Below, piece after piece: positions 21,906 to 30,915 of a DNA stretch of 64,000 nucleotides. The stretch is from an uncultured Bacteroidales bacterium (lineage in GTDB: Bacteria; Bacteroidota; Bacteroidia; Bacteroidales; G3-4614). Within the stretch, counting starts at the first letter, position 1. Each line of letters starts with the position of its first letter. The notes under the pieces were generated by a model. The model searched no databases, was not told the origin of the DNA, and saw only the letters and a program-made list of their open reading frames with translations. The position numbers and the translations under genes were made by a program. The stretch covers positions 822 to 64,821 of the forward strand of contig CASFRS010000013.1 in the NCBI GenBank assembly GCA_949297125.1. The letters are read 5' to 3'.

Positions 21906-22071
21906 TAACAAAGGTTGCTAAGGACAAAATTTATTTCGCTTTGCCGGTTACCGTTTTTGTTATCTGCGGTTTTGCGTAGCGGTTTGTCGCGCAAGGGATT
22001 CTACAGGTTTGCCCGATGCCGGTTGCCGGAAGACATGTCCGCTCCTTTCCGGCGCGTATACACGCGCATAA

Positions 22072-22121
22072 TGACAGAAAACAGAAGCCGCGCCTCTTTC
22101 TTCAGGCACGGCTTCTGTTTT
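22072..22121 (-). terminator. rho-independent terminator after the DUF975-like gene
   Basis: AAAACAGAAGCCG…CGGCTTCTGTTTT, a perfect 13-bp stem. The minus strand continues ttttctgtc. Confidence 0.7.
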
Positions 22122-22145
22122 CCCGGCTTGTCGGCCCTCCAGCCG

Positions 22146-22793
22146 TCATTCCTTCACGGTATCTGCATTTTCGGGTGTTTCGGGTTCGGACGGGACATCC
22201 TCTGCCATAAGATTACGGTATACTACCGCCATGCAGGAAAGGGAGTACACCGTAACCGCAATGACTGCTATCAACATCATTATAAATATCATTCCGAACG
22301 ATTCGGCAACCGATGTGAAAATCATCTGCAATATCATCAAAAGCACGAACAAGGATATGTTTATTGCGAACAATACCCATTTGTATCCGCTTGTGGCGTT
22401 GTTGCTGCGGACCAATGCCTCTCCCGGCGCCACCCCTTTGTCGACCAGTATATAATATGCGAGGGACCACCCGAGGAGTATTATTATGGCCGGAACTATG
22501 AGAAATGCTAACGCCGGCAGGACCGAAAGGGATATCAACCCCGTAAGGGTGAAATACTCGCCCATGTACTTGCGGTATTTTTCATCGAATATGTAAAGCG
22601 GGGAGATTACCTTGCCTTTACTCAGTTCTATCGGCATGGTCTGCAATGCTATCGTGGTCCCCACGTTTATATACGGGACCCATATTGTCAAGAGCCACAA
22701 CACCACGGCCCCGGCCATGGACAATACATTTTTTACCGCTATCGTCGCCCCTTCGGACATGACGCCCACATACGTAATTTTTTTCGCTGCCAT
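22146..22793 (-). CDS. hypothetical integral membrane protein (DUF975-like pattern)
   Basis: 215 aa with about 4-5 TM segments. YYILVDKGVAPGEALVRSNNATSG resembles the DUF975 loop. Acidic C-terminal tail. It lies 118 bp downstream of the secreted-protein cluster on the same strand. Confidence 0.5.
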   Translation of the reverse strand: MAAKKITYVGVMSEGATIAVKNVLSMAGAVVLWLLTIWVPYINVGTTIALQTMPIELSKGKVISPLYIFDEKYRKYMGEYFTLTGLISLSVLPALAFLIVPAIIILLGWSLAYYILVDKGVAPGEALVRSNNATSGYKWVLFAINISLFVLLMILQMIFTSVAESFGMIFIMMLIAVIAVTVYSLSCMAVVYRNLMAEDVPSEPETPENADTVKE

Positions 22794-22911
22794 ACTTCTG
22801 TTTGCTTTTTATCGGTTTTATTCTGTTTAATGATAGTCAAATGATAGTTATCTGAGGCTACACCTGTTCCGCACTGCCGTTTTAAGGCAAAACAGGCGCC
22901 CAGTTCCCGAA

Positions 22912-23556
22912 TCAATACGGCAATATCGCATCGAGATCCTTCAGGTTCTGCGACGATTTCTCCTTCAGCGATTTCTTTATCTCCTCTTTTGCCTGACTCA
23001 GGGCCTTTTCCCGCGATATGGCCATTACCACGCGCACTTCGGTCTTGCCTTTGCCCAAATCGCGGAAAATCTCCAGCAGATACTCCGTGCCTTTCAGCTG
23101 CATCGTAGACACGCTCTTTGCCGCGCTGGCCACCTCGTAAAGGGCCTCGGCCTGATTGCCGCCCATATCCATGTTGGAAAGTTCCTGCGTCATTTTGGAT
23201 GCGAGCATATCGCTCAGGCTGCGGCATATCTCCAGTTTCGCGTTATTGTCGGCCATCTGCTTGGCTATCGTATAGTTGCCGCCAACCACGCTGGCGCTTC
23301 CCGTTATGAAATAGCTCTCCCCGTCGTCGGTTTTGCGCAGCTGCGCTATCTGGGACTGCTCAAGCTGTTTTTCCAACGGAAGTTTTCCCGGCATTATCTG
23401 CCACCCGTCGCCTTCCAGTTTCTTTGCTTCCTTGCGTATTTCCTTACTGGTTTTGGCCGACAATTCCTTTTTAAGGGCGCTGTTGTCTGCAACGGCCACG
23501 CCGGCCGCAGATACCAACAGGAATATCGCCGTCAATGATAACAATAGCTTTTTCAT
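22912..23556 (-). CDS. secreted hypothetical protein, LPP20/FlgP-like pattern (cluster gene E)
   Basis: 214 aa with SPI signal MKKLLLSLTAIFLLVSAAGVAVA|D. YFITGSASVVGGNYTIAKQMADNNAKLEICRSLSDMLASKM fits the LPP20-family core. K/E-rich ends. Confidence 0.55.
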   Translation of the reverse strand: MKKLLLSLTAIFLLVSAAGVAVADNSALKKELSAKTSKEIRKEAKKLEGDGWQIMPGKLPLEKQLEQSQIAQLRKTDDGESYFITGSASVVGGNYTIAKQMADNNAKLEICRSLSDMLASKMTQELSNMDMGGNQAEALYEVASAAKSVSTMQLKGTEYLLEIFRDLGKGKTEVRVVMAISREKALSQAKEEIKKSLKEKSSQNLKDLDAILPY

Positions 23557-23583
23557 GGTTTAATCGTATTTGCAGTTTTTATT

Positions 23584-24906
23584 TTATTCTTCGTCTTCGT
23601 TTATTATCTCGGTTTTCCTTACCATTATCTTGTAAGGAAGAACGATATTTATGTCCTGCTCTTCTCCGTTACGCTCCACAACAGCTTTTCCCTGCAATAT
23701 GTCGAGTGTGTTGTAGCGTACGTCCGCCCCTATTATGGGAGCTTCGGTGCTGCACTGCAACGTGTACTGCCCGTCGCTGCCGACCTCCTCGTCCACGGCG
23801 TCTATTATCAAGGGCGCCTTTAATGCCGGCACCTTGAGTTCGAGCCTTTTTACCGTATACGGCGCGAACCCTTCGGCCTGGAATGTAATGGATACGGTTA
23901 TGTCGCTTATGGTATTCTCTTCGTCAAGCATTCCGGTTATATATACGTCGCCCTTGGCCCGCAGCGAATCGCTGCGCCGCGGCACTGTAAATGTTATGTT
24001 GCGCTCCAGCCGTTTTCCCGGGAGATTCCACATCAGCATTATCTCGTTGTACGAACCTTTGGGGCACGCATCGTAGGCATACGTGAGCAGGGCGGTATTG
24101 CCCGATGCCGAGTACGAGAGTTCCGTAGCCGTCTGCGAGCGCATTACCGGAACGGCACGCAACATTATCTGCCTGCCGCCCAGATAGAACTTGAATTCAG
24201 CATAACCCAACCCCTGTTCTTCAACCTCAACGTTTATCTGCGTGTAGAGCGCCATGTAATTTTTCTGCAACGCCTCTACCTGATTGCGCCGGTGCGTATC
24301 GAAGAAATAGCTCTTTATTCCGTTGAGGGCATTTACGGCACTCTCTATCTGCTCATATTCGCTTATATCGTCGTAGCCGGCCTTGCACTCCTTGTAGACC
24401 TGCCACATTTCGGCATCGCGCTTCTCGAATTCCGCCACAAGCCCGTCCAGCTCGCTCTTCGGGAAAGCATACTTAACCGAAAGTACGAAATAACGCTCCT
24501 TGGTGCTTTTGTCGTAACGCTCCTCCCAGTATGAATCGATAGCCTTGGCAAGCGTTACCCCTTTTATATACGGGATGTTGGCCGACTGTTTGCGCAACTC
24601 GCTGTTGAACTGGGTGCGGAAATCAATCATCTCGTTCTGCGTGTACTGCGTGGATATTTCGCTGCTGGAGAACTCGATATTCTGCGATATGGCATCGAGC
24701 ATCTGCAGACGGATGTTGTCCAGGCATTTCTGCCGGGCTTCTTCCATGGTGGGGGCTTTGGACGAAACTATTATCATCTGCTGCTCTGTCCCGTTTATCC
24801 ACGAAGGCTCGCTCGATGCGCTGCGGTTCACCACCTTTACCTTGGCCGCCGCCGGGAACGCTATGCCCGCGGACAAGAGCAACAGTATTATTATTCGGGC
24901 TTTCAT
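23584..24906 (-). CDS. secreted hypothetical protein, N-terminal LPP20-like module plus beta-rich C-terminal half (cluster gene D)
   Basis: 440 aa with signal MKARIIILLLLSAGIAFPAAA|K. Contains EPSWING…EEARQKCLDNIRLQMLDAISQNI…YWEERY…YFVLSVKY. The C-terminal ~220 aa are beta-strand-like. Acidic tail EDEE. Confidence 0.55.
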   Translation of the reverse strand: MKARIIILLLLSAGIAFPAAAKVKVVNRSASSEPSWINGTEQQMIIVSSKAPTMEEARQKCLDNIRLQMLDAISQNIEFSSSEISTQYTQNEMIDFRTQFNSELRKQSANIPYIKGVTLAKAIDSYWEERYDKSTKERYFVLSVKYAFPKSELDGLVAEFEKRDAEMWQVYKECKAGYDDISEYEQIESAVNALNGIKSYFFDTHRRNQVEALQKNYMALYTQINVEVEEQGLGYAEFKFYLGGRQIMLRAVPVMRSQTATELSYSASGNTALLTYAYDACPKGSYNEIMLMWNLPGKRLERNITFTVPRRSDSLRAKGDVYITGMLDEENTISDITVSITFQAEGFAPYTVKRLELKVPALKAPLIIDAVDEEVGSDGQYTLQCSTEAPIIGADVRYNTLDILQGKAVVERNGEEQDINIVLPYKIMVRKTEIINEDEE

Positions 24907-24913
24907 AGTCTGT

Positions 24914-25987
24914 TTATTTTAAGAATGTATTTGTAAACCAGGTCTTGAACTCCGTACCGCTTTTTTCGTCATCCATAGCCTGTTCTATTTTCAGGCGTGC
25001 CTGAACATCGGCATATTCTTTTGCCTCGCGCCCCGATATCGCCATTTTCATCAGTTCATGGGCTCTTTCCTTGTCCCGCTCCTGCGCTTCGTATTCCATT
25101 GCCAGCTTCTGCATTTCCGCTTCACGCTCCTCTTTTGCGGCGGCTTTCGCCGCTTCTATTTCACGAATCCGTTCCTCGGCGGCCGCCTTTTCCGCTTCGT
25201 CAATTTTCGTGCGTATATCGGCAATCATCTGCCACGCCTCATCGTAGCGGCTGCACATGGGGTCGATTGTCGCAAGGGTGTCTATTGCGGGGATATACGA
25301 CTTCTTGACAACTAACGCCTTGGCGTTGTTTATCTTGATATCGGCATCCCTGTCGAGCACCTTGGCATACGCCTTGCCCATCAGTTCCGATACCGTAAGA
25401 TAACCGTCCACGCACTCGGGTATGATACTGAGCGTTACCAGGGCATCGTCGTACTCCAACGCCGTCATCTGCCTCTCGGCTTTTGCCAGTACCTGCGGCA
25501 TTATCCTTTCGTAATACTCTATTACCCTCTGCTGGGACTCCGCAATAAACCGGGCTATCTGGGGATTGCTGCCGCGTATGGAATTTATCATTACCCGATA
25601 ACAGTCCTGTTCGCTCTTCCCGCTCCCTTCAAGCGGGAGCACTACCGTTGCGAAAGTGTTGTCATCCATAAGATTCCGGGAAAAGAGCGACAACTCGCCC
25701 CTTACAACATACACGTTGCGCATTCCGGTATTCACGACATCGGAGGTTGTGGTTACAAACTCGGGCCATATTACGAACAGCTGGCTTTGCGCCGTGTTCG
25801 CCCCGGCATTGTTGTACGCCACCGCCTGTTCAATCTTAAGGGTCAGCCTCTTCTGGTTGTCGGCATTCAGAGGGGTCTCGCCTTGAAGCCCCAAAGCCCT
25901 GAACGATATGTTCTCTTTCTCGGTTGCCTGCACCGATACGGCGGCAAATGCCGCCAGCAGCAGGGTTGTCAGTCTCCGTGTTTTCAT
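24914..25987 (-). CDS. secreted hypothetical protein with C-terminal E/A/K coiled coil (cluster gene C)
   Basis: 357 aa with signal MKTRRLTTLLLAAFAAVSVQA|T. Residues ~255-335 read DEAEKAAAEERIREIEAAKAAAKEEREAEMQKLAMEYEAQERDKERAHEL…. Confidence 0.55.
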   Translation of the reverse strand: MKTRRLTTLLLAAFAAVSVQATEKENISFRALGLQGETPLNADNQKRLTLKIEQAVAYNNAGANTAQSQLFVIWPEFVTTTSDVVNTGMRNVYVVRGELSLFSRNLMDDNTFATVVLPLEGSGKSEQDCYRVMINSIRGSNPQIARFIAESQQRVIEYYERIMPQVLAKAERQMTALEYDDALVTLSIIPECVDGYLTVSELMGKAYAKVLDRDADIKINNAKALVVKKSYIPAIDTLATIDPMCSRYDEAWQMIADIRTKIDEAEKAAAEERIREIEAAKAAAKEEREAEMQKLAMEYEAQERDKERAHELMKMAISGREAKEYADVQARLKIEQAMDDEKSGTEFKTWFTNTFLK

Positions 25988-26000
25988 AATATCAGAGTCT

Positions 26001-27251
26001 TTACTGTATTGTCAATTCTATTGTGTTGCCTGTTATTGTACGTTTTACCACCAGGTTCAGCCCGCGCAGGAAACGGTACAATGCAAGCGAAAAATCGTTT
26101 ATGTCGCTGTTGTCGGTATTCTTTATCTGTATCTCATCGAGCGACAGAAGCGTTTCGCTGCGCCCTTGCTGGTGATATTTGCCGTCCTTTGCATTCTCTT
26201 TTACCCAACCTATTATGGCGTCGGACAACGGGGTGTAATCCGTTCCCACTTCCATATCGAAGTTGACGTTGCTCATCGGGTCGATACTGAACTGTATGGC
26301 TATTGTATTGCCTTTGCTTATGCGGTTTGCCATGGAGATCTGTATCTGTTTCAGGAAATCGTCGACCATGGTCTGTATCATGGCTGCCGCTATTACTTCC
26401 ACGGTTGCCTTTTTGCGTCCGGAGACTTCGGATTTCGATGCGATGTTCCTTCCGCTGGCCGCCTCGATAGCCCTGAGCGAAAGCGTTACGCGGTTACCCA
26501 ACTGCTCGTTGCCGTCGTTGCTTATATCGAGGTAGACCGCTACATCCGCCCCGGAATTTATCACAAGGTTGTTTACGAAATCCAGATCGCCTTTCATCGC
26601 CATATAGCGGTCGGCATTCCGCAACATCTGCTCCAGGTCTTTTGTCTCTACGCCTTTTTCTATGAACGCCTCGTTCATCCTGGATATGGCCAGGCGCATA
26701 TACGGATTGGACTCTATTATCTCCTGCGGCATGGTTGAATTATCGCTGTACGGCAGCACCATTATCGACGGGAAGGCTATTGTCTCGGCAACTTCGACAA
26801 ACCCGGTAGGGTGTATTATCTTACTGTTTACAAGATCCTTGTATATCGACTCTATATAAAGTTCAAGGGTTATATACACCTGAAACTGCTTGCCTACCTT
26901 GCGCGTTGCATCGCCATCGACGGTATACCCTTTTACAAACACGTTGTACCTGCCGCTCTCAAGCATATTGTTCATATACGATATTGCCTGCGATGTGGGC
27001 TTTGTGCCAAGCAGCGGCAGACCGCGGTTGAGGCCGTCTATCCCGCTCAGAAGATATGTGTATATGGCCGACTTTACCGCCATTGCCTCGGCATTTTTCT
27101 TCTTGCCGTCAATTCCGGAACACTTCAGTACGGCCACCTTGTCATCCTTGTTTTCAACGAGCATCGCATCGCTGCTGTATCCCTGCGCCCTCAATGCGGC
27201 TACAGGCATCAACATCAAGGCTGCTATTACTGTCATCAACTTCTTTTTCAT
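26001..27251 (-). CDS. secreted hypothetical protein with two alpha/beta modules (cluster gene B; possibly DUF6175-like)
   Basis: 416 aa with signal MKKKLMTVIAALMLMPVAALRA|Q. The central module FPSIMVLPY…RLAISRMNEAFIEKGVETKDLEQ…GADVAVYLDIS…VTLSLRAIEAASGRNIAS has the LpoB/CsgG-like pattern. Confidence 0.5.
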   Translation of the reverse strand: MKKKLMTVIAALMLMPVAALRAQGYSSDAMLVENKDDKVAVLKCSGIDGKKKNAEAMAVKSAIYTYLLSGIDGLNRGLPLLGTKPTSQAISYMNNMLESGRYNVFVKGYTVDGDATRKVGKQFQVYITLELYIESIYKDLVNSKIIHPTGFVEVAETIAFPSIMVLPYSDNSTMPQEIIESNPYMRLAISRMNEAFIEKGVETKDLEQMLRNADRYMAMKGDLDFVNNLVINSGADVAVYLDISNDGNEQLGNRVTLSLRAIEAASGRNIASKSEVSGRKKATVEVIAAAMIQTMVDDFLKQIQISMANRISKGNTIAIQFSIDPMSNVNFDMEVGTDYTPLSDAIIGWVKENAKDGKYHQQGRSETLLSLDEIQIKNTDNSDINDFSLALYRFLRGLNLVVKRTITGNTIELTIQ

Positions 27252-27746
27252 ATTTTTTCCGATTTCTTGATTATACTACTTTCCTGCTGGTCCTTATTTT
27301 ATACCCTTCCTTGCTGTTATAGAGGGATTGTTCGACGTATTTTCTATCACTCCGGTATTTCACACTCGGCGAGAAGCGTTTCTCAGGCAACCGCTTCCGG
27401 CTGCATACGACCTGTTTTTCCTCTGGCTACAGAATTTGTTTTCTTAGTATTCCAATAGGCCCGGGCTCTTTCTGTCCCTTACCCGCCCTATACGCAAAAT
27501 AAAGTCATATTTTCCATATATGCAAATATTTTATAACCTATTTGAAGTAATGCTATCGGTACGCGACCGTCCAAAAAGGGCCGTGCCGTTTCCTGACGAT
27601 GCAGCCGTTTGGCGTATTCCGTTATGCGGGGGTGTACTCCTTGCCGTTTCTTCCGTTTTTACCGGATGATTCCGCGTCCTGATACAGGAGAGTACAAAAA
27701 AAGAGTGTCGGGTCCCTTTGCCGCACGCCGCCGCCGTATATGCAAA

Positions 27747-27787
27747 CAGGAAGCCGCGCCCCTCTGGTGTATGGCCGTGGCTTCCTG
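27747..27787 (-). terminator. hairpin 25 nt downstream of cluster gene A (possible partial terminator)
   Basis: CAGGAAGCCGCG…CGTGGCTTCCTG, a 12-bp stem with one G-U pair. On the minus strand it is followed only by a weak T-tract (tttgcatata). Confidence 0.45.
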
Positions 27788-27811
27788 CGTGGTTGTATTG
27801 TACAAGGCGGG

Positions 27812-28714
27812 TTAGAATCCGAAGAATCCGCTGACTTTCTCGCGGGTATTGCCTGCCGATTCTATTACAAGCTTGTCCTTGCCTTCGTTATTGAATATGT
27901 CGTTTATCTCGTTTCCTCCTTTGGTTACGTTGCACTTGGTAAGCCCGTCCATTACTTCATCGGCCTTGAGCGCACCTATTTCCTGGTTTACCGTCCGCGA
28001 GCCTATCTGTTTTACGTAATACACCTTGAATACCTGTCCTTTTCTTACACCCATTTCGTTTCCGCCTACTATATAGAGTTCCTTCGCTCCTTTCTTCTTG
28101 TCGACGGACTCTATCATCTCTATGGTAGTGGTGAATTTGAAGTAAGCATCCACAAAACTGCGCATCTCTTTCTTCGCATTTTCAACTGCACTCATGTCGG
28201 CCTTTTCCGAACTGTCGGAGTTTACGCCGGTCAGCTGTATGTTCTTCGACGCTACGGTCGAACCGTCCAGGATGTTATACACCGTCAGGGAGAATGATAT
28301 TTTAGAATACCAGCTGTACGAATCGCCCAATACGTCTTTCTCGCGCGTTACGGTGCGGTCGTTACATTTCCCTTTTACAATGTATTTTGCCCCGAGCGAT
28401 TTATATACCACCTCGCTGTCGCTGTTCAATACGTTCGAGGCATCCACGTCATCTTCTGCAACGCGTTTTGCGCTGAGCGCCTTGAGGGCATCGTTGGTAA
28501 GGGCATCTACTACATGGAAACGGCCTTTGGCTACAAACCCTTCTATTACATTGGCGCGGATTCCTTCTGCAATGTACGACGGAACAGCTACGGTTCTCTC
28601 GAATTCATCTACGATTACGGTCTCTTTCTGAGGATCCGCGCTTTCCTGCGCCGACACGTTGCCTGCAAACAGCACTGCTGCCACTACTACTGACGAAATT
28701 GTTTTAAAGTTCAT
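27812..28714 (-). CDS. secreted CsgG/LpoB-like protein with C-terminal small beta domain (cluster gene A)
   Basis: 300 aa with signal MNFKTISSVVVAAVLFAGNVSA|Q. VIVDEFERTV…IRANVIEGFVAKGRFHVVDALTNDAL…LGAKYIVKGKC…SKISFSLTVYNILDGSTVAS matches the CsgG/LpoB alpha/beta pattern. The C-terminal LYIVGGNEMGVRKGQVFKVYYV is SH3/OB-like. Confidence 0.55.
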   Translation of the reverse strand: MNFKTISSVVVAAVLFAGNVSAQESADPQKETVIVDEFERTVAVPSYIAEGIRANVIEGFVAKGRFHVVDALTNDALKALSAKRVAEDDVDASNVLNSDSEVVYKSLGAKYIVKGKCNDRTVTREKDVLGDSYSWYSKISFSLTVYNILDGSTVASKNIQLTGVNSDSSEKADMSAVENAKKEMRSFVDAYFKFTTTIEMIESVDKKKGAKELYIVGGNEMGVRKGQVFKVYYVKQIGSRTVNQEIGALKADEVMDGLTKCNVTKGGNEINDIFNNEGKDKLVIESAGNTREKVSGFFGF

Positions 28715-28772
28715 GATAATTAAAATGTTTTTGTTTATGATTAGTTCTTGTTATTTGCGTATTTCAAGGTTT

Positions 28773-28780
28773 CAAACATA
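28773..28780 (-). promoter_or_regulatory. -7 box TATGTTTG upstream of cluster gene A
   Basis: rc of caaacata, 59 nt upstream of ATG 28714. Confidence 0.4.
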
Positions 28781-29030
28781 CCTCCTTCTTGCAGGTTATT
28801 GTCGGTTAAGGTTTCGTTCCTCCCTGTCATAGTATAGATTTACACTCTTTCCTCTTCCGCCGATGCAAATTAAACATTAATTTTTTTATTCTACAAATTT
28901 TTTTTATCGCTTTTATACACTACTGAAAACGGTTATTCCATAAAAATCTGACTTTGACCTTTTTCGTCCTCCGGTTCTGATTGCAATACTTTATAGAGGG
29001 GATTTGCCGACAATTTATATCATTGCCGGC

Positions 29031-29077
29031 AAAAAAAACGGATACGGGGGAGGGTATTTCCCTGCCCCCGTATCCGT
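29031..29077 (-). terminator. rho-independent terminator of typA
   Basis: ACGGATACGGGGG…CCCCCGTATCCGT, a perfect 13-bp stem. The minus strand continues with T8. Confidence 0.85.
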
Positions 29078-29112
29078 CCGGCCTTTTCCCGCCGTTTTTA
29101 TTTCGCCGCCTG

Positions 29113-30915
29113 TTACGACTTGTTCTGGCGTTTTCTCTCGGTTTCGTCGAGTATTATTTTCCGCAACCTCAGGTGATGCGGGGTTACTTCGACGTATTCG
29201 TCTTCTTTTATATACTCGAGCGCTTCTTCGAGGCTGAATACTACCGGGGGGATCAGTTTTGTCTTTTCATCGGAACCGGAGGCACGCATGTTGGTAAGTT
29301 TCTTCGATTTGGTTACGTTTACCACTATATCGCCCTCCTTGGCGTTCTCGCCTACTACCTGTCCGGCATAGACTTCATCCTGCGGGAAAATAAAGAAACG
29401 TCCGCGATCCTGCAGCTTGTCTATGGCATAAGCGTATGCCGTACCGGCCTCCATTGCTATAAGCGAACCGTTTGTACGGCGTTCTATCTCGCCTTTCCAC
29501 GGCTGGTACTCGAGGAAACGGTGCGCCATTATGGCTTCGCCAGCCGATGCGGTGAGGACATTGTTGCGCAACCCTATTATCCCGCGCGAGGGGATGGTGA
29601 ACTCCATGTGCACCCTGTCGCCCTGCGTCTCCATGGCGTTGAGTTCGCCTTTCCTGCGGGTTACCATATCTATTATCTTGCTGGAGTACTCTTCCGTAAC
29701 GTTTATGGTGAGCTGCTCTACCGGTTCGCACTTCACCCCGTCTATCTCCTTTACTATAACCTGGGGCTGCCCCACCTGCAGTTCGTACCCTTCGCGGCGC
29801 ATCGTCTCTATCAGTATGGACAAGTGGAGGACGCCGCGCCCGTATACCGTCCACACGTCGGCATCGGGGGCTTTTTCCACCCGCAGCGCAAGGTTGCGGT
29901 CGAGCTCGCGGTTGAGACGGTCGGCTATGTGGCGCGAGGTTACATACTTTCCGTCGCGCCCGAAAAACGGGGAATCGTTGTTGGTAAAGGACATCGACAT
30001 TGTAGGCTCGTCGATTGCTATCCGCTTCAACGGTTCGGGATTTGCCGGATCGGATATGGTATCGCCTATCTCGAAGCCGTCTATCCCCACCAGTGCGCAT
30101 ATATCGCCCGACGAGGCTTCGGCCACCTTGTTGCGCCCGAGGCCTTCAAATACGTGCAACTCCTTTATGCGCTGCCTTACTACGCTGCCGTCGCGCTTGC
30201 AGAGGGCCACGTCCATCCCCTCGCGCAGCGTCCCGCGGTGTATGCGGCCCACGGCAATGCGGCCCACGTACGACGAGAAGTCGAGCGACGTTATCAGCAT
30301 CTGCGGCGCACCTTCAAGTTGCGGCGGCGCGGGGATTGTCTCTATTATAGTGTCGAGAAGCACGTTTATGTCGGTCGTAGGCTTGCGCCAGTCAAGCGAC
30401 ATCCAGTTCTGCTTGGCCGAACCGAACACCGTGGGGAAGTCCAGCTGCTCTTCACTGGCATTGAGGTTGAACATCAGGTCGAAGACCATCTCCTGCACCT
30501 CGTCGGGACGGCAGTTGGGCTTGTCCACCTTGTTCACCACCACTATGGGTTTCAACCCCATCTCTATCGCTTTCTGCAAAACGAAACGGGTTTGCGGCAT
30601 GGGCCCTTCAAAGGCATCGACCAGCAGCAGACAACCGTCGGCCATGTTCAGCACCCGCTCGACTTCACCGCCGAAATCGGCGTGCCCCGGAGTATCTATT
30701 ATGTTTATCTTACACCCTTTATAGCGTATGGATACGTTCTTGGAGAGAATGGTTATCCCCCGCTCGCGCTCCAAATCGTTGTTGTCGAGTATCAGCTCTC
30801 CCGAATTCTGGTTGTCCCTGAAAAGTTTGCCGGCCAACAGCATCTTGTCTACAAGCGTGGTCTTCCCGTGGTCTACGTGCGCTATTATGGCTACGTTTCT
30901 TATATCTTGCTGCAT
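29113..30915 (-). CDS. typA: translational GTPase TypA/BipA
   Basis: 600 aa, [26 protein letters not shown]…[14 protein letters not shown]…NKVD. Confidence 0.95.

Follow-up and report, generated by a model that had tools for sequence, protein, structure and literature searches.

Layout of the cluster

The locus consists of five neighbouring open reading frames on the minus strand of a 64,000-nucleotide stretch of DNA from an uncultured gut Bacteroidales bacterium (the window), which we call genes A to E. Their number, strand and lengths are as claimed in an earlier note on this DNA. The five genes, together with two candidate regulatory features, are:

22912 to 23556, minus strand: gene E, 214 aa, predicted secreted, putatively LPP20-like (open reading frame, AlphaFold, hhalign)
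23584 to 24906, minus strand: gene D, 440 aa, predicted secreted, putative LPP20/SHS2-like N-domain (about residues 30-160), helical linker and beta-rich C-terminal part (open reading frame, family-wide matches)
24914 to 25987, minus strand: gene C, 357 aa, predicted secreted, alpha/beta N-domain, TPR-like region and coiled coil (open reading frame, Pfam matches of relatives)
26001 to 27251, minus strand: gene B, 416 aa, predicted secreted, N-terminal domain (about 23-150) followed by DUF6175 (161-415) (open reading frame, Pfam)
27489 to 27545, minus strand: 57-nt island in the A-B spacer, near-identical to a Ca. Caccoplasma merdipullorum locus
27812 to 28714, minus strand: gene A, 300 aa, predicted secreted, FlgT-like two-domain protein as judged from its model (open reading frame, AlphaFold, Foldseek)
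28773 to 28780, minus strand: candidate promoter of A, TATGTTTG, an exact TAnnTTTG match 66 nt upstream of the A start codon

Housekeeping genes surround the cluster, and the gene calls for A-E are identical on independent metagenome scaffolds. Within the species, pN/pS for the five genes is 0.00-0.19, comparable to the neighbouring housekeeping genes; purifying selection acts on A-E. The B-C, C-D and D-E spacers measure 13, 7 and 27 bp, identical to the spacing first described, and spacers this short fit co-translation of B-E. Genes A and B are 560 bp apart.

This longer gap holds no Rfam family. The -7 promoter consensus of Bacteroides is TAnnTTTG, and TATGTTTG is its sole exact match on the minus strand across positions 22000-29200; scored against that consensus, it is a candidate promoter of A. 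When the A-B spacer is aligned with its counterpart in Ca. Caccoplasma merdipullorum, the two have diverged everywhere outside the 57-nt island, which includes TTTG…TTATTTTG and may act on B-E as a promoter or a regulatory site. Given the 560-bp gap and a separate promoter-like island, A may be transcribed separately from B-E.

Export signals

All five proteins begin with a predicted type-I signal peptide, in agreement with the earlier claim: one to three K/R among residues 1-6, a hydrophobic core with a 10-residue Kyte-Doolittle mean of 2.5-2.9, and small -3/-1 residues at the predicted cleavage sites (written with a slash, VSA/Q, LRA/Q, VQA/T, AAA/K and AVA/D for A to E). No Cys occurs within the first 30 residues of any of them, a lipobox is missing throughout, and none has an internal membrane-helix-like window; with no membrane anchor in the source genome, A-E could be soluble periplasmic proteins. 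Searches with Pfam and NCBIfam profiles find no T9SS C-terminal sorting domain (Por_Secre_tail/TIGR04183) at E<=1. That lipobox and sorting domain would both be absent had been anticipated. A third, that of a beta-barrel terminal Phe, needs correcting in its letter, since A does end in Phe (…GFFGF), but A is not a beta-barrel. The same profile searches return no enzyme family for A-E and no CsgG or LPP20 match even at E<=1; four of the five proteins have no Pfam family, B being the exception. The cluster is unnamed in the literature searched and in the source annotation.

Gene A and the FlgT fold

The AlphaFold model of A (pLDDT 78.9, residues 1-27 unstructured) has two domains, an alpha/beta one at the N-terminus (about residues 30-190) and a small one of beta type at the C-terminal side (about 198-286), and ends in a disordered tail of Gly and aromatic residues, which we compared with the tails of relatives for conservation. 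Foldseek aligns the model over 292-295 columns with two structures at probability 1.00: 8z5n_0 (E 1.1e-15) and FlgT of the Vibrio polar flagellar motor H-ring (PDB 3w1e, E 2.5e-15). Chain 0 of 8z5n, an LPHT ring structure, we take to be FlgT as well from its length and near-identical score. A shares with FlgT the succession of an alpha/beta and a beta domain and would, again like FlgT, be periplasmic and exported with a cleaved signal peptide; global TM-scores against the two structures reach just 0.32-0.38 (sequence identity 12-14%), so the orientation of the domains differs. A long beta-hairpin in the model (strands 109-126 and 133-147) lies in broadly the same position as the ring-forming insert described for this family (PMC12222027).

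The N-domain of A by itself also matches CsgG, HpaA, TolB, PelC and GNA1162 (DUF799), with template-normalised TM-scores of 0.55-0.68 and an rmsd of 4-5 A for PelC. At the level of Pfam profiles, A has no match to FlgT_N, FlgT_M or FlgT_C at E<=1 and none to CsgG (PF03783), and no FlgT model reaches threshold in the A family. The commonest weak match among its relatives is LpoB (PF13036), in 7 of 27 (best 1.7e-4, all below cut-off), followed by FlgT_M in 5 of 27 (best 0.021) and CsgG in 4 of 27 (best 0.003). The relatives, of which there are only 29 among 5.8 billion proteins, share with A the absence of a lipobox (no Cys in the first 30 residues). The CsgG/LpoB/TolB-N/FlgT-like signature and the terminal FlgT_C-like beta domain proposed for A from its letters are both recovered, the former in the fold matches and sub-threshold scores, the latter in the model and the full-length FlgT match. 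Judged from its model, A resembles FlgT from end to end, its N-domain being CsgG/TolB-N/PelC-like and its C-domain small and of beta type, and the calls made from the letters were largely right.

Genes B and C

Gene B is a clear member of Pfam DUF6175 (PF19672), which it matches at E 1.4e-44 with 152.9 bits (cut-off 23) over profile positions 3-292 of 293, and all ten of ten relatives of B match it too. DUF6175 is a family without assigned function or structure and finds no mention in the papers searched. B differs from it by an additional N-terminal domain, which is encoded as a separate gene in locus L107. It is also the most conserved member of the cluster, with 71% identity to locus L010 versus 42-58% for A, C, D and E.

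Gene C joins a small alpha/beta N-domain to TPR-like helical repeats (about residues 160-250), an E/A/K/R coiled coil of about 80 aa and an aromatic tail (FKTWFTNTFLK). The coiled coil had been predicted and is evident in the composition, E/A/K/R making up 64% of residues 260-340; relatives of C match TPR_19, TPR_14 and ARM_TT21, one match being above cut-off.

Do B and C share the fold of the A N-domain, as had been suggested for the middle of B and the N-terminal part of C? The evidence is marginal (hhalign P ~0.01), though secondary-structure elements align in order. For the first half of DUF6175 in B, which hhalign pairs across 122 columns with the N-domain of A (P=0.012), a TolB-N/CsgG/FlgT-type fold is probable; for the N-domain of C, where the assignment rests on P ~0.01, it is possible.

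Genes D and E and the LPP20 family

The families of D and E are sizeable, with 422 representatives of D at E<=1e-3 and 217 relatives of E. Among the relatives of D is a size class of about 310 aa in which the final ~120 aa are absent. In Alistipes, E is replaced by a paralogue type, E2, that is a lipoprotein. The two types align well (hhalign 96.4%, E 1e-9), and D aligns with both (4.6e-4 against E; 1.4e-3 against E2, over 120 columns). Neither E nor D matches Pfam LPP20 (PF02169) at E<=1; E2 members come down to 2.4e-5 (25.1 bits, below the cut-off of 25.9), relatives of E match in 5 of 66 cases (best 0.0074), and in the D family LPP20 is the only recurrent Pfam match (16 of 91 members, best 4.5e-5). 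The chain from E to LPP20 via E2 is transitive, with its last link below the Pfam threshold.

The AlphaFold model of E (pLDDT 84, residues 1-24 unstructured) has a three-stranded sheet packed on long helices, a layout that resembles the three-stranded sheet and helices of Lpp20 (PMC11756786). Foldseek retrieves only weak matches for it, the best PDB entry being 4qvr (E 0.017); the proteins matched include FTT1539c, HP1454 (0.19) and Tip-alpha (0.3-0.6), and Lpp20 and FlgP themselves are not retrieved. Tip-alpha is known to be structurally homologous to Lpp20 (Vallese 2017, cited in PMC12222027). FlgP, Lpp20 and FlgT have a common SHS2-like fold, and within the FlgP/FlgT family the formation of rings goes together with a beta-hairpin insert (PMC12222027); the E model is without this insert, a point against the oligomeric ring that had been proposed.

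Set against the LPP20 family (H. pylori Lpp20/HP1456 with HP1454 and HP1457 from its operon; FlgP of the flagellar basal disk), E and the D N-domain would share the beta-alpha…beta-beta core, but E has two extra long helices and no lipoprotein anchor, D fuses the module to about 280 more residues without assigned fold, and no protein of the window passes the Pfam cut-off. All E2 members carry a lipobox, whereas E has a signal-peptidase-I-type signal, a switch that parallels FlgP homologues, in which both forms occur (PMC11756786). The LPP20-like cores that the earlier note saw in D and E are in this way partly supported, by transitive and family-wide matches, while no Pfam threshold is passed and the fold match of E is weak.

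Conservation and neighbours

The earlier note had held that its proposal would fail if the five genes never occurred together elsewhere. We find them together at about 95 loci, and wherever such a locus is long enough the order A-B-C-(Zn)-D-E/E2 is preserved, in Ca. Caccoplasma, Alistipes, Rikenellaceae and unclassified Bacteroidales, while the flanking genes vary among several unrelated contexts. The range is narrow: B patterns match 12 of 185,579 species genomes. That A-E are unrelated secreted proteins adjacent by chance, as the missing Pfam family for four of the five might suggest, is hardly credible given an order and composition conserved at about 95 loci with differing flanks, the tight B-E spacers and the fold types common to several members.

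The earlier view that the context gives no hint of function holds for the source genome but not for its relatives. In Alistipes the cluster additionally has a zinc-ribbon membrane protein (Zn), a transglutaminase-like protein (G) and a C25-like peptidase that has a zinc ribbon but neither a signal peptide nor a membrane helix, and the full set is seen in 38 of the loci. SPFH/GYF proteins are inserted in the clusters of L016 and L107. Of five distant E homologues sampled, all adjoin Peptidase_C14 (caspase-like) genes and an LPP20+DUF4384 protein, and four adjoin WD40 and/or G genes. At least four lineages stably retain a short form that lacks any protease, and the 64-kb window contains no homologue of G or C25.

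Interpretation

We consider it about an even bet that A-E are a conserved unit encoding a non-enzymatic periplasmic multi-protein assembly, whose likeliest place is against the inner side of the outer membrane; the physical complex, the outer-membrane location and the scaffold role are what we infer here. The products would leave the cytoplasm through Sec and lose their signal peptides to signal peptidase I, and would be built from two related small fold types, TolB-N/CsgG/FlgT (A, probably B in the first half of its DUF6175, possibly C in its N-domain) and LPP20/SHS2 (E and the D N-domain). If FlgT, FlgP and Lpp20 are a guide, these modules might pack mutually into a scaffold under the outer membrane. 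C, with its TPR region and its coiled coil of ~80 residues, might serve there as a strut or adaptor that extends into the periplasm, and A and C might dock through their short Gly/aromatic C-terminal tails. In Alistipes, the lipidated E-type protein and the zinc-ribbon inner-membrane protein could tie this core to the membranes, and the lipobox in all E2 members points to a membrane-proximal assembly in the relatives.

A similar design is known: Proteobacteria carry uncharacterised CsgG-like/LPP20/DUF799 triads, for which our literature search found nothing usable, and which likewise bring CsgG/TolB-N-type and LPP20-type proteins together in one operon. These triads comprise three genes versus five to eight here and have no counterpart of B (DUF6175) or C (TPR and coiled coil). 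Their proteins, like the CsgG, PelC, GNA1162 and TolB-N proteins that have the same fold as the A N-domain, are lipoproteins, which A-E are not, and there is no sequence-level membership.

The protease-like, transglutaminase-like and cytoplasmic zinc-ribbon genes of related clusters suit a system for signalling or processing no less well than they do a passive scaffold. A-E could then be the periplasmic sensor or platform of an envelope-to-cytoplasm signalling or conflict system whose output is caspase-fold (clan CD) proteolysis, the source genome having kept the periplasmic core alone, with its effector lost or encoded elsewhere. The Alistipes additions, the Peptidase_C14 neighbours of the distant E homologues, the SPFH/GYF insertions and weak EAD11 matches in the TPR region of C relatives all speak for it. 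We nevertheless judge it unlikely: the EAD11 matches are sub-threshold and located on TPR-like repeats, no PADLOC 2.0 anti-phage model matches A-F, Zn, G, the C25-like protein or H at E<=0.1, the window has neither G nor C25, and the protease-free form is stable in its several lineages under purifying selection.

A bolder and doubtful proposal is that the cluster is a non-flagellar relative of the H-ring or basal disk, a periplasmic ring or lattice beneath the outer membrane made of FlgT-like and LPP20-like subunits; in Alistipes, the zinc-ribbon inner-membrane protein would connect it with a caspase-fold peptidase in the cytoplasm. Bacteroidales are non-flagellated, and no flagellar Pfam family occurs within +/-10 kb of any cluster version. 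If it were true, the Alistipes version would be an envelope-integrity sensor with proteolytic output, and the cluster would show a role of flagellar disk proteins before motor recruitment.

It is rather improbable that A-E act in the periplasm as regulators of, or adaptors for, the synthesis of the cell wall or the constriction of the outer membrane, in the manner of LpoB or TolB of Proteobacteria, whose role has, to our knowledge, no equivalents in Bacteroidota. The LpoB matches of the A family, the TolB N-domains among its fold matches and the housekeeping surroundings in the source genome lean this way, but A is not a lipoprotein and stays below the LpoB threshold, so narrow a taxonomic range would be odd for a core cell-wall function, and the flanks vary between genomes with no PBP or Tol-Pal gene adjacent.

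Still harder to sustain is a role as accessory to polymer export (amyloid, polysaccharide or similar), in which A or B would sit below a pore in the outer membrane as a funnel of the CsgG or PelC kind. The N-domain of A does match the folds of CsgG and PelC strongly, yet A has no lipobox and over its full length best matches FlgT, not CsgG; no cluster version contains or adjoins a glycosyltransferase, a curli subunit, a CsgE/F-like gene or an outer-membrane barrel, and the neighbours include no Pfam matches to the curli partners CsgE/F/A/B.

Significance

Alistipes and related Bacteroidales are abundant in the gut, and their cell envelope is poorly understood; as far as we know they are without Lpp, LpoA/B and many further proteobacterial envelope organisers. 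As a conserved set of five to eight genes for exported structural proteins, the cluster makes a concrete candidate, open to testing, for a new envelope structure. It also provides a first context for DUF6175 and for three sizeable families without a Pfam model, those of D, E and the transglutaminase-like G. Finally, FlgT-like and LPP20-like proteins are now placed in a non-flagellated lineage, and the cluster bears on the suggestion that the flagellar disk proteins were recruited from a wider, pre-existing family (PMC12222027).

Gene calls, export signals and constraint

The cluster consists of five neighbouring minus-strand genes whose products are predicted to be exported:

27812-28714, minus: A, open reading frame of 300 aa
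26001-27251, minus: B, open reading frame of 416 aa
24914-25987, minus: C, open reading frame of 357 aa
23584-24906, minus: D, open reading frame of 440 aa
22912-23556, minus: E, open reading frame of 214 aa

A and B are 560 bp apart, and the other spacers measure 13 bp (B-C), 7 bp (C-D) and 27 bp (D-E), so that the last four genes are as tightly packed as an earlier note had described them. We find identical A-E gene calls, and identical neighbours, in many ENA and Logan metagenome scaffolds; in the window these neighbours are typA/bipA, rpsO, DHFR and thymidylate synthase upstream, with a DUF975-like membrane protein (F) and a 2-oxoacid:ferredoxin oxidoreductase downstream. The base composition of the A-E region is unremarkable. 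All five N-termini open with K/R and show a highly hydrophobic segment, with small residues in positions -3 and -1, there is no Cys within the first 30 residues, and none of the proteins has an internal membrane-helix-like window. Inspection of the residues thus bears out the earlier note's type-I-like signal peptides without a lipobox Cys; its further statement that none of the five has a beta-barrel terminal Phe motif needs correcting for A, which terminates in Phe (GFFGF), although it is not a beta-barrel. The predicted mature N-terminus of both A and B is Gln, at a position invariant in their alignments, and an N-terminal Gln after cleavage is common among signal-peptidase-I substrates of Bacteroidota.

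Across seven within-species copies, pN/pS for A-E is 0.00-0.19, similar to thyA, DHFR and korA, and we therefore take A-E to be real genes under constraint. Diversifying selection on C and D, suspected from their larger number of allelic variants, is ruled out by their pN/pS of 0.04-0.19. Source annotations name none of the five proteins, Pfam and NCBIfam scans of them return no match besides DUF6175, and neither A, B and D nor the alignments of A, B, C and E find anything meaningful when searched against PDB sequences (by sequence and profile).

Gene order in relatives

Relatives' loci come from three sources: contigs encoding relatives of A, E and D; a scan of the B alignment against 185,579 species genomes, whose pattern reaches fairly close relatives only and which yields 12 loci (from Ca. 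Caccoplasma merdipullorum, whose B protein is 89% identical, and from Alistipes spp., Rikenellaceae and Bacteroidales); and a metagenome scan yielding 80 loci. The sample is skewed to a few human-gut Alistipes species. The arrangements are as follows, where E2 is a lipoprotein type that replaces E, Zn a zinc-ribbon membrane protein, G a transglutaminase-like protein and C25 a C25-like peptidase:

A-B-C-D-E: the window, L015 (Ca. Caccoplasma merdipullorum), L010 and L018
A-B-C-D-E2: L092
E2-A-B-C-D: L017
A-B-C-Zn-D-E2-G-C25: 38 complete Alistipes loci, and truncated versions at contig ends

Genes common to these loci keep their mutual order, with no scrambling in any mapped locus, and on this comparison A-E are best read as one unit. 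The genes flanking the cluster vary by lineage, which argues that it moves as a cassette. The co-occurrence outside this genome that the earlier note had looked to is found, with the A-E order recurring in L015, L010 and L018. The DNA of the window probably comes from a species of Ca. Caccoplasma, a genus listed in NCBI taxonomy under Bacteroidaceae incertae sedis.

We also considered the next gene downstream as a sixth member:

22146-22793, minus: F, 215-aa multi-pass membrane protein with a weak DUF975 match, 118 bp downstream of E

Because F takes this place after E within the genus alone (L015), and L010 and L018 lack it there, it is rejected as a member and probably belongs outside the cluster.

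Peptidases and other neighbours

Two layouts extend the core:

L008, 13217-20888: Alistipes long form, shared by L019, L021-L025 and about 38 metagenome loci
L107, 987-8651: B in two genes, then C, Zn, SPFH/GYF proteins, D and E

In the Alistipes form, Zn (~312 aa), between C and D, combines membrane segments with a zinc ribbon at its N-terminus. E2 is followed by the secreted ~480-aa family G, with weak Transglut_core matches (0.02-0.04) and a Cys…His…Asp arrangement read by eye from the sequences, by C25, which joins a zinc ribbon at the N-terminus to a Peptidase_C25-like domain (9.4e-8) and has neither a signal peptide nor a membrane helix, and by a double-zinc-ribbon protein. Between Zn and D, L107 has additional genes for a protein with SPFH (Band_7_1) and GYF_2 domains and for small membrane proteins; L016 (4781-6445) and L026 carry this insert too.

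All five sampled loci of distant E homologues (L012, L013, L014, L108 and L109, from Muribaculaceae, Bacteroides sp., Cyclobacteriaceae and others) adjoin Peptidase_C14 genes and genes of H, a family of ~290-aa proteins that match LPP20 and DUF4384 weakly, and in 4/5 WD40 and/or G genes are adjacent. This C14/H/WD40/G neighbourhood is recurrent and undescribed. As judged from domain matches, LPP20-type members recur beside caspase-fold peptidases and a transglutaminase-like protein. The earlier note's statement that no enzymes are attached stands for this window, where we recognise none among the five proteins and no G or C25 homologue within the 64 kb, and does not extend to the Alistipes long form with G and C25 or to the distant E homologues with C14; the window genome holds the bare structural core of the cluster. 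PADLOC defence models match none of the cluster components, which rules out a known defence system.

Proteins D and E

The E family comprises 217 matches (Muribaculaceae, Bacteroides, Paramuribaculum, Duncaniella, Cyclobacteriaceae), none with a Pfam domain. In the AlphaFold model of E (pLDDT 84), long helices support a three-stranded sheet, a layout that fits the description of Lpp20 (PMC11756786). Foldseek finds zero PDB matches to it at E<=0.001 and weak ones to FTT1539c (0.017), HP1454 (0.19) and Tip-alpha (0.3-0.6), the last described as a structural homologue of Lpp20 in Vallese 2017, as cited in PMC12222027. The lipoprotein E2, which occupies E's position in Alistipes, is homologous to E (hhalign 96.4%, E 1e-9), and 6/10 E2 members match Pfam LPP20, the best with 2.4e-5 and 25.1 bits, where the cut-off is 25.9.

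Exhaustive HMMER recovers 422 cluster representatives related to D, in size classes of ~430 and ~310 aa, whereas a word-indexed search had returned a misleading 7; given this rise, our count of 29 relatives of A may likewise be a large underestimate. LPP20 is the sole recurrent Pfam match in the D family (16/91 members, best 4.5e-5), and alignment of the deep D profile gives E 4.6e-4 with protein E and, over 120 columns, E 1.4e-3 with E2, so the N-domain of D is probably LPP20/SHS2-like; some 280 residues beyond it have no assigned fold. The LPP20-like cores that the earlier note saw in D and E are thus supported through E2 and the D relatives at a level that never reaches the cut-off, and LPP20 membership of both appears near-threshold and transitive.

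Proteins A, B and C

The AlphaFold model of A, built from 27 relatives (pLDDT 78.9), matches chain 0 of 8z5n, the Vibrio LPHT ring (Foldseek E 1.1e-15), and Vibrio FlgT 3w1e (E 2.5e-15) over 292-295 columns. The next matches of its N-domain are CsgG, HpaA, TolB-N, PelC, GNA1162, CT253 and Cj1090c, and the relatives scanned singly give sub-threshold Pfam matches to LpoB (7/27), FlgT_M (5/27) and CsgG (4/27). We read A, on its model, as a FlgT-like two-domain protein at fold level, with no apparent sequence-level membership in FlgT, LpoB, CsgG or the other matched families. The model includes a long beta-hairpin (strands 109-126 and 133-147).

B is a DUF6175 member (152.9 bits, Pfam), by these searches the only family-level membership among the five, and is also the best conserved, at 71% identity to L010 versus 42-58% for the others. 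The motifs NSGADV, GKYHxQGR and PLSD are invariant in B. Its N-terminal ~130 residues are an independent module, since in L107 separate genes encode the N-domain (172 aa) and the DUF6175 part (319 aa). The A N-domain aligns with the first half of DUF6175 in B over 122 columns (profile-profile P 0.012), with the order of secondary-structure elements preserved, and the small alpha/beta N-domain of C is marginally similar to A (P 0.014); the CsgG-like signature previously proposed for the middle of B and the N-terminal part of C is therefore marginal only. FlgP, Lpp20 and FlgT have an SHS2-like core in common (PMC12222027), so all five proteins may draw on one broad module class.

TPR-like repeats, seen in relatives of C, are followed in C by a coiled coil of ~80 residues (64% E/A/K/R), in agreement with the E/A/K coiled-coil end noted earlier. 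Residues ~162-231 of the relatives in L019, L021 and L024 give EAD11 matches (E 3e-4 to 5e-3, below cut-off), which on the TPR-like region of periplasmic proteins are probably repeat noise; EAD11 is effector-associated domain 11 of conflict systems and is noteworthy given the caspase-fold peptidases nearby.

A and C both end in a Gly-rich linker and an aromatic/hydrophobic terminus:

27812-27850, minus: A tail, ending GFFGF
24914-24950, minus: C tail, ending FKTWFTNTFLK

With the relatives in L008-L026 included, the family tails are GFFGF, GFLGVK and DIFK; GEWLFGL and FKTWFTNTFLK. The A tail is disordered in the AlphaFold model, and the two families may share in these tails a peptide for docking or for association with a membrane.

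Candidate transcription signals

28773-28780, minus: TATGTTTG, exact Bacteroides-type -7 motif, 66 nt upstream of A
27489-27545, minus: 57-nt island in the A-B spacer, 237 nt upstream of the B start

The A-B spacer is long in the Caccoplasma lineage only (560 bp in the window and 642 bp in L015, versus 84 bp in L008 and 75 bp in L010). The island, which carries TTTG and TTATTTTG motifs, is nearly identical in L015 while the remaining spacer has diverged, and is probably a promoter or regulatory site for B-E. Rfam gives nothing above threshold in the spacer or the rest of the region, and a sigma-70 promoter and terminator scan, which is unsuited to Bacteroidota, gives counts no higher than in shuffled sequence. 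Between typA and A, at 29013-29083, a tpke11 Rfam match on both strands (E 0.08, below threshold) suggests a palindromic hairpin such as a terminator.

Discussion

Export signals, strict synteny, purifying selection and a lack of recognisable enzymes are established for A-E, and fold types at the strengths given above; we give roughly even odds (about 0.5) that the five proteins form a co-functioning periplasmic scaffold. Their assembly would be periplasmic and close to the outer membrane, a placement suggested by the lipidation of E2 in relatives and by the position of FlgT, FlgP and Lpp20 at the outer membrane's periplasmic face. C would provide a TPR adaptor and a coiled-coil spacer, and the tails of A and C resemble docking peptides. 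As to possible rings, the A model has the long beta-hairpin given above, and the hairpin insert that correlates with ring formation (PMC12222027) is absent from the E model.

The peptidases found beside the cluster and beside distant E homologues bring in a different reading, in which A-E make up the periplasmic side of a signalling or conflict system linked to a protease; we consider this unlikely. Smaller weight than either goes to LpoB/TolB-like regulators, whose namesakes appear among the matches of A, and to polymer-export accessories.

The published literature that we searched contains no mention of DUF6175 and no description of the A-E cluster. The proposed scaffold uses building blocks that are already known. 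What has no description so far is a system of five to eight genes restricted to non-flagellated Bacteroidales, and its association with clan-CD peptidases. For genetic work on a putative new envelope structure of abundant gut bacteria, the cluster offers a ready entry point.
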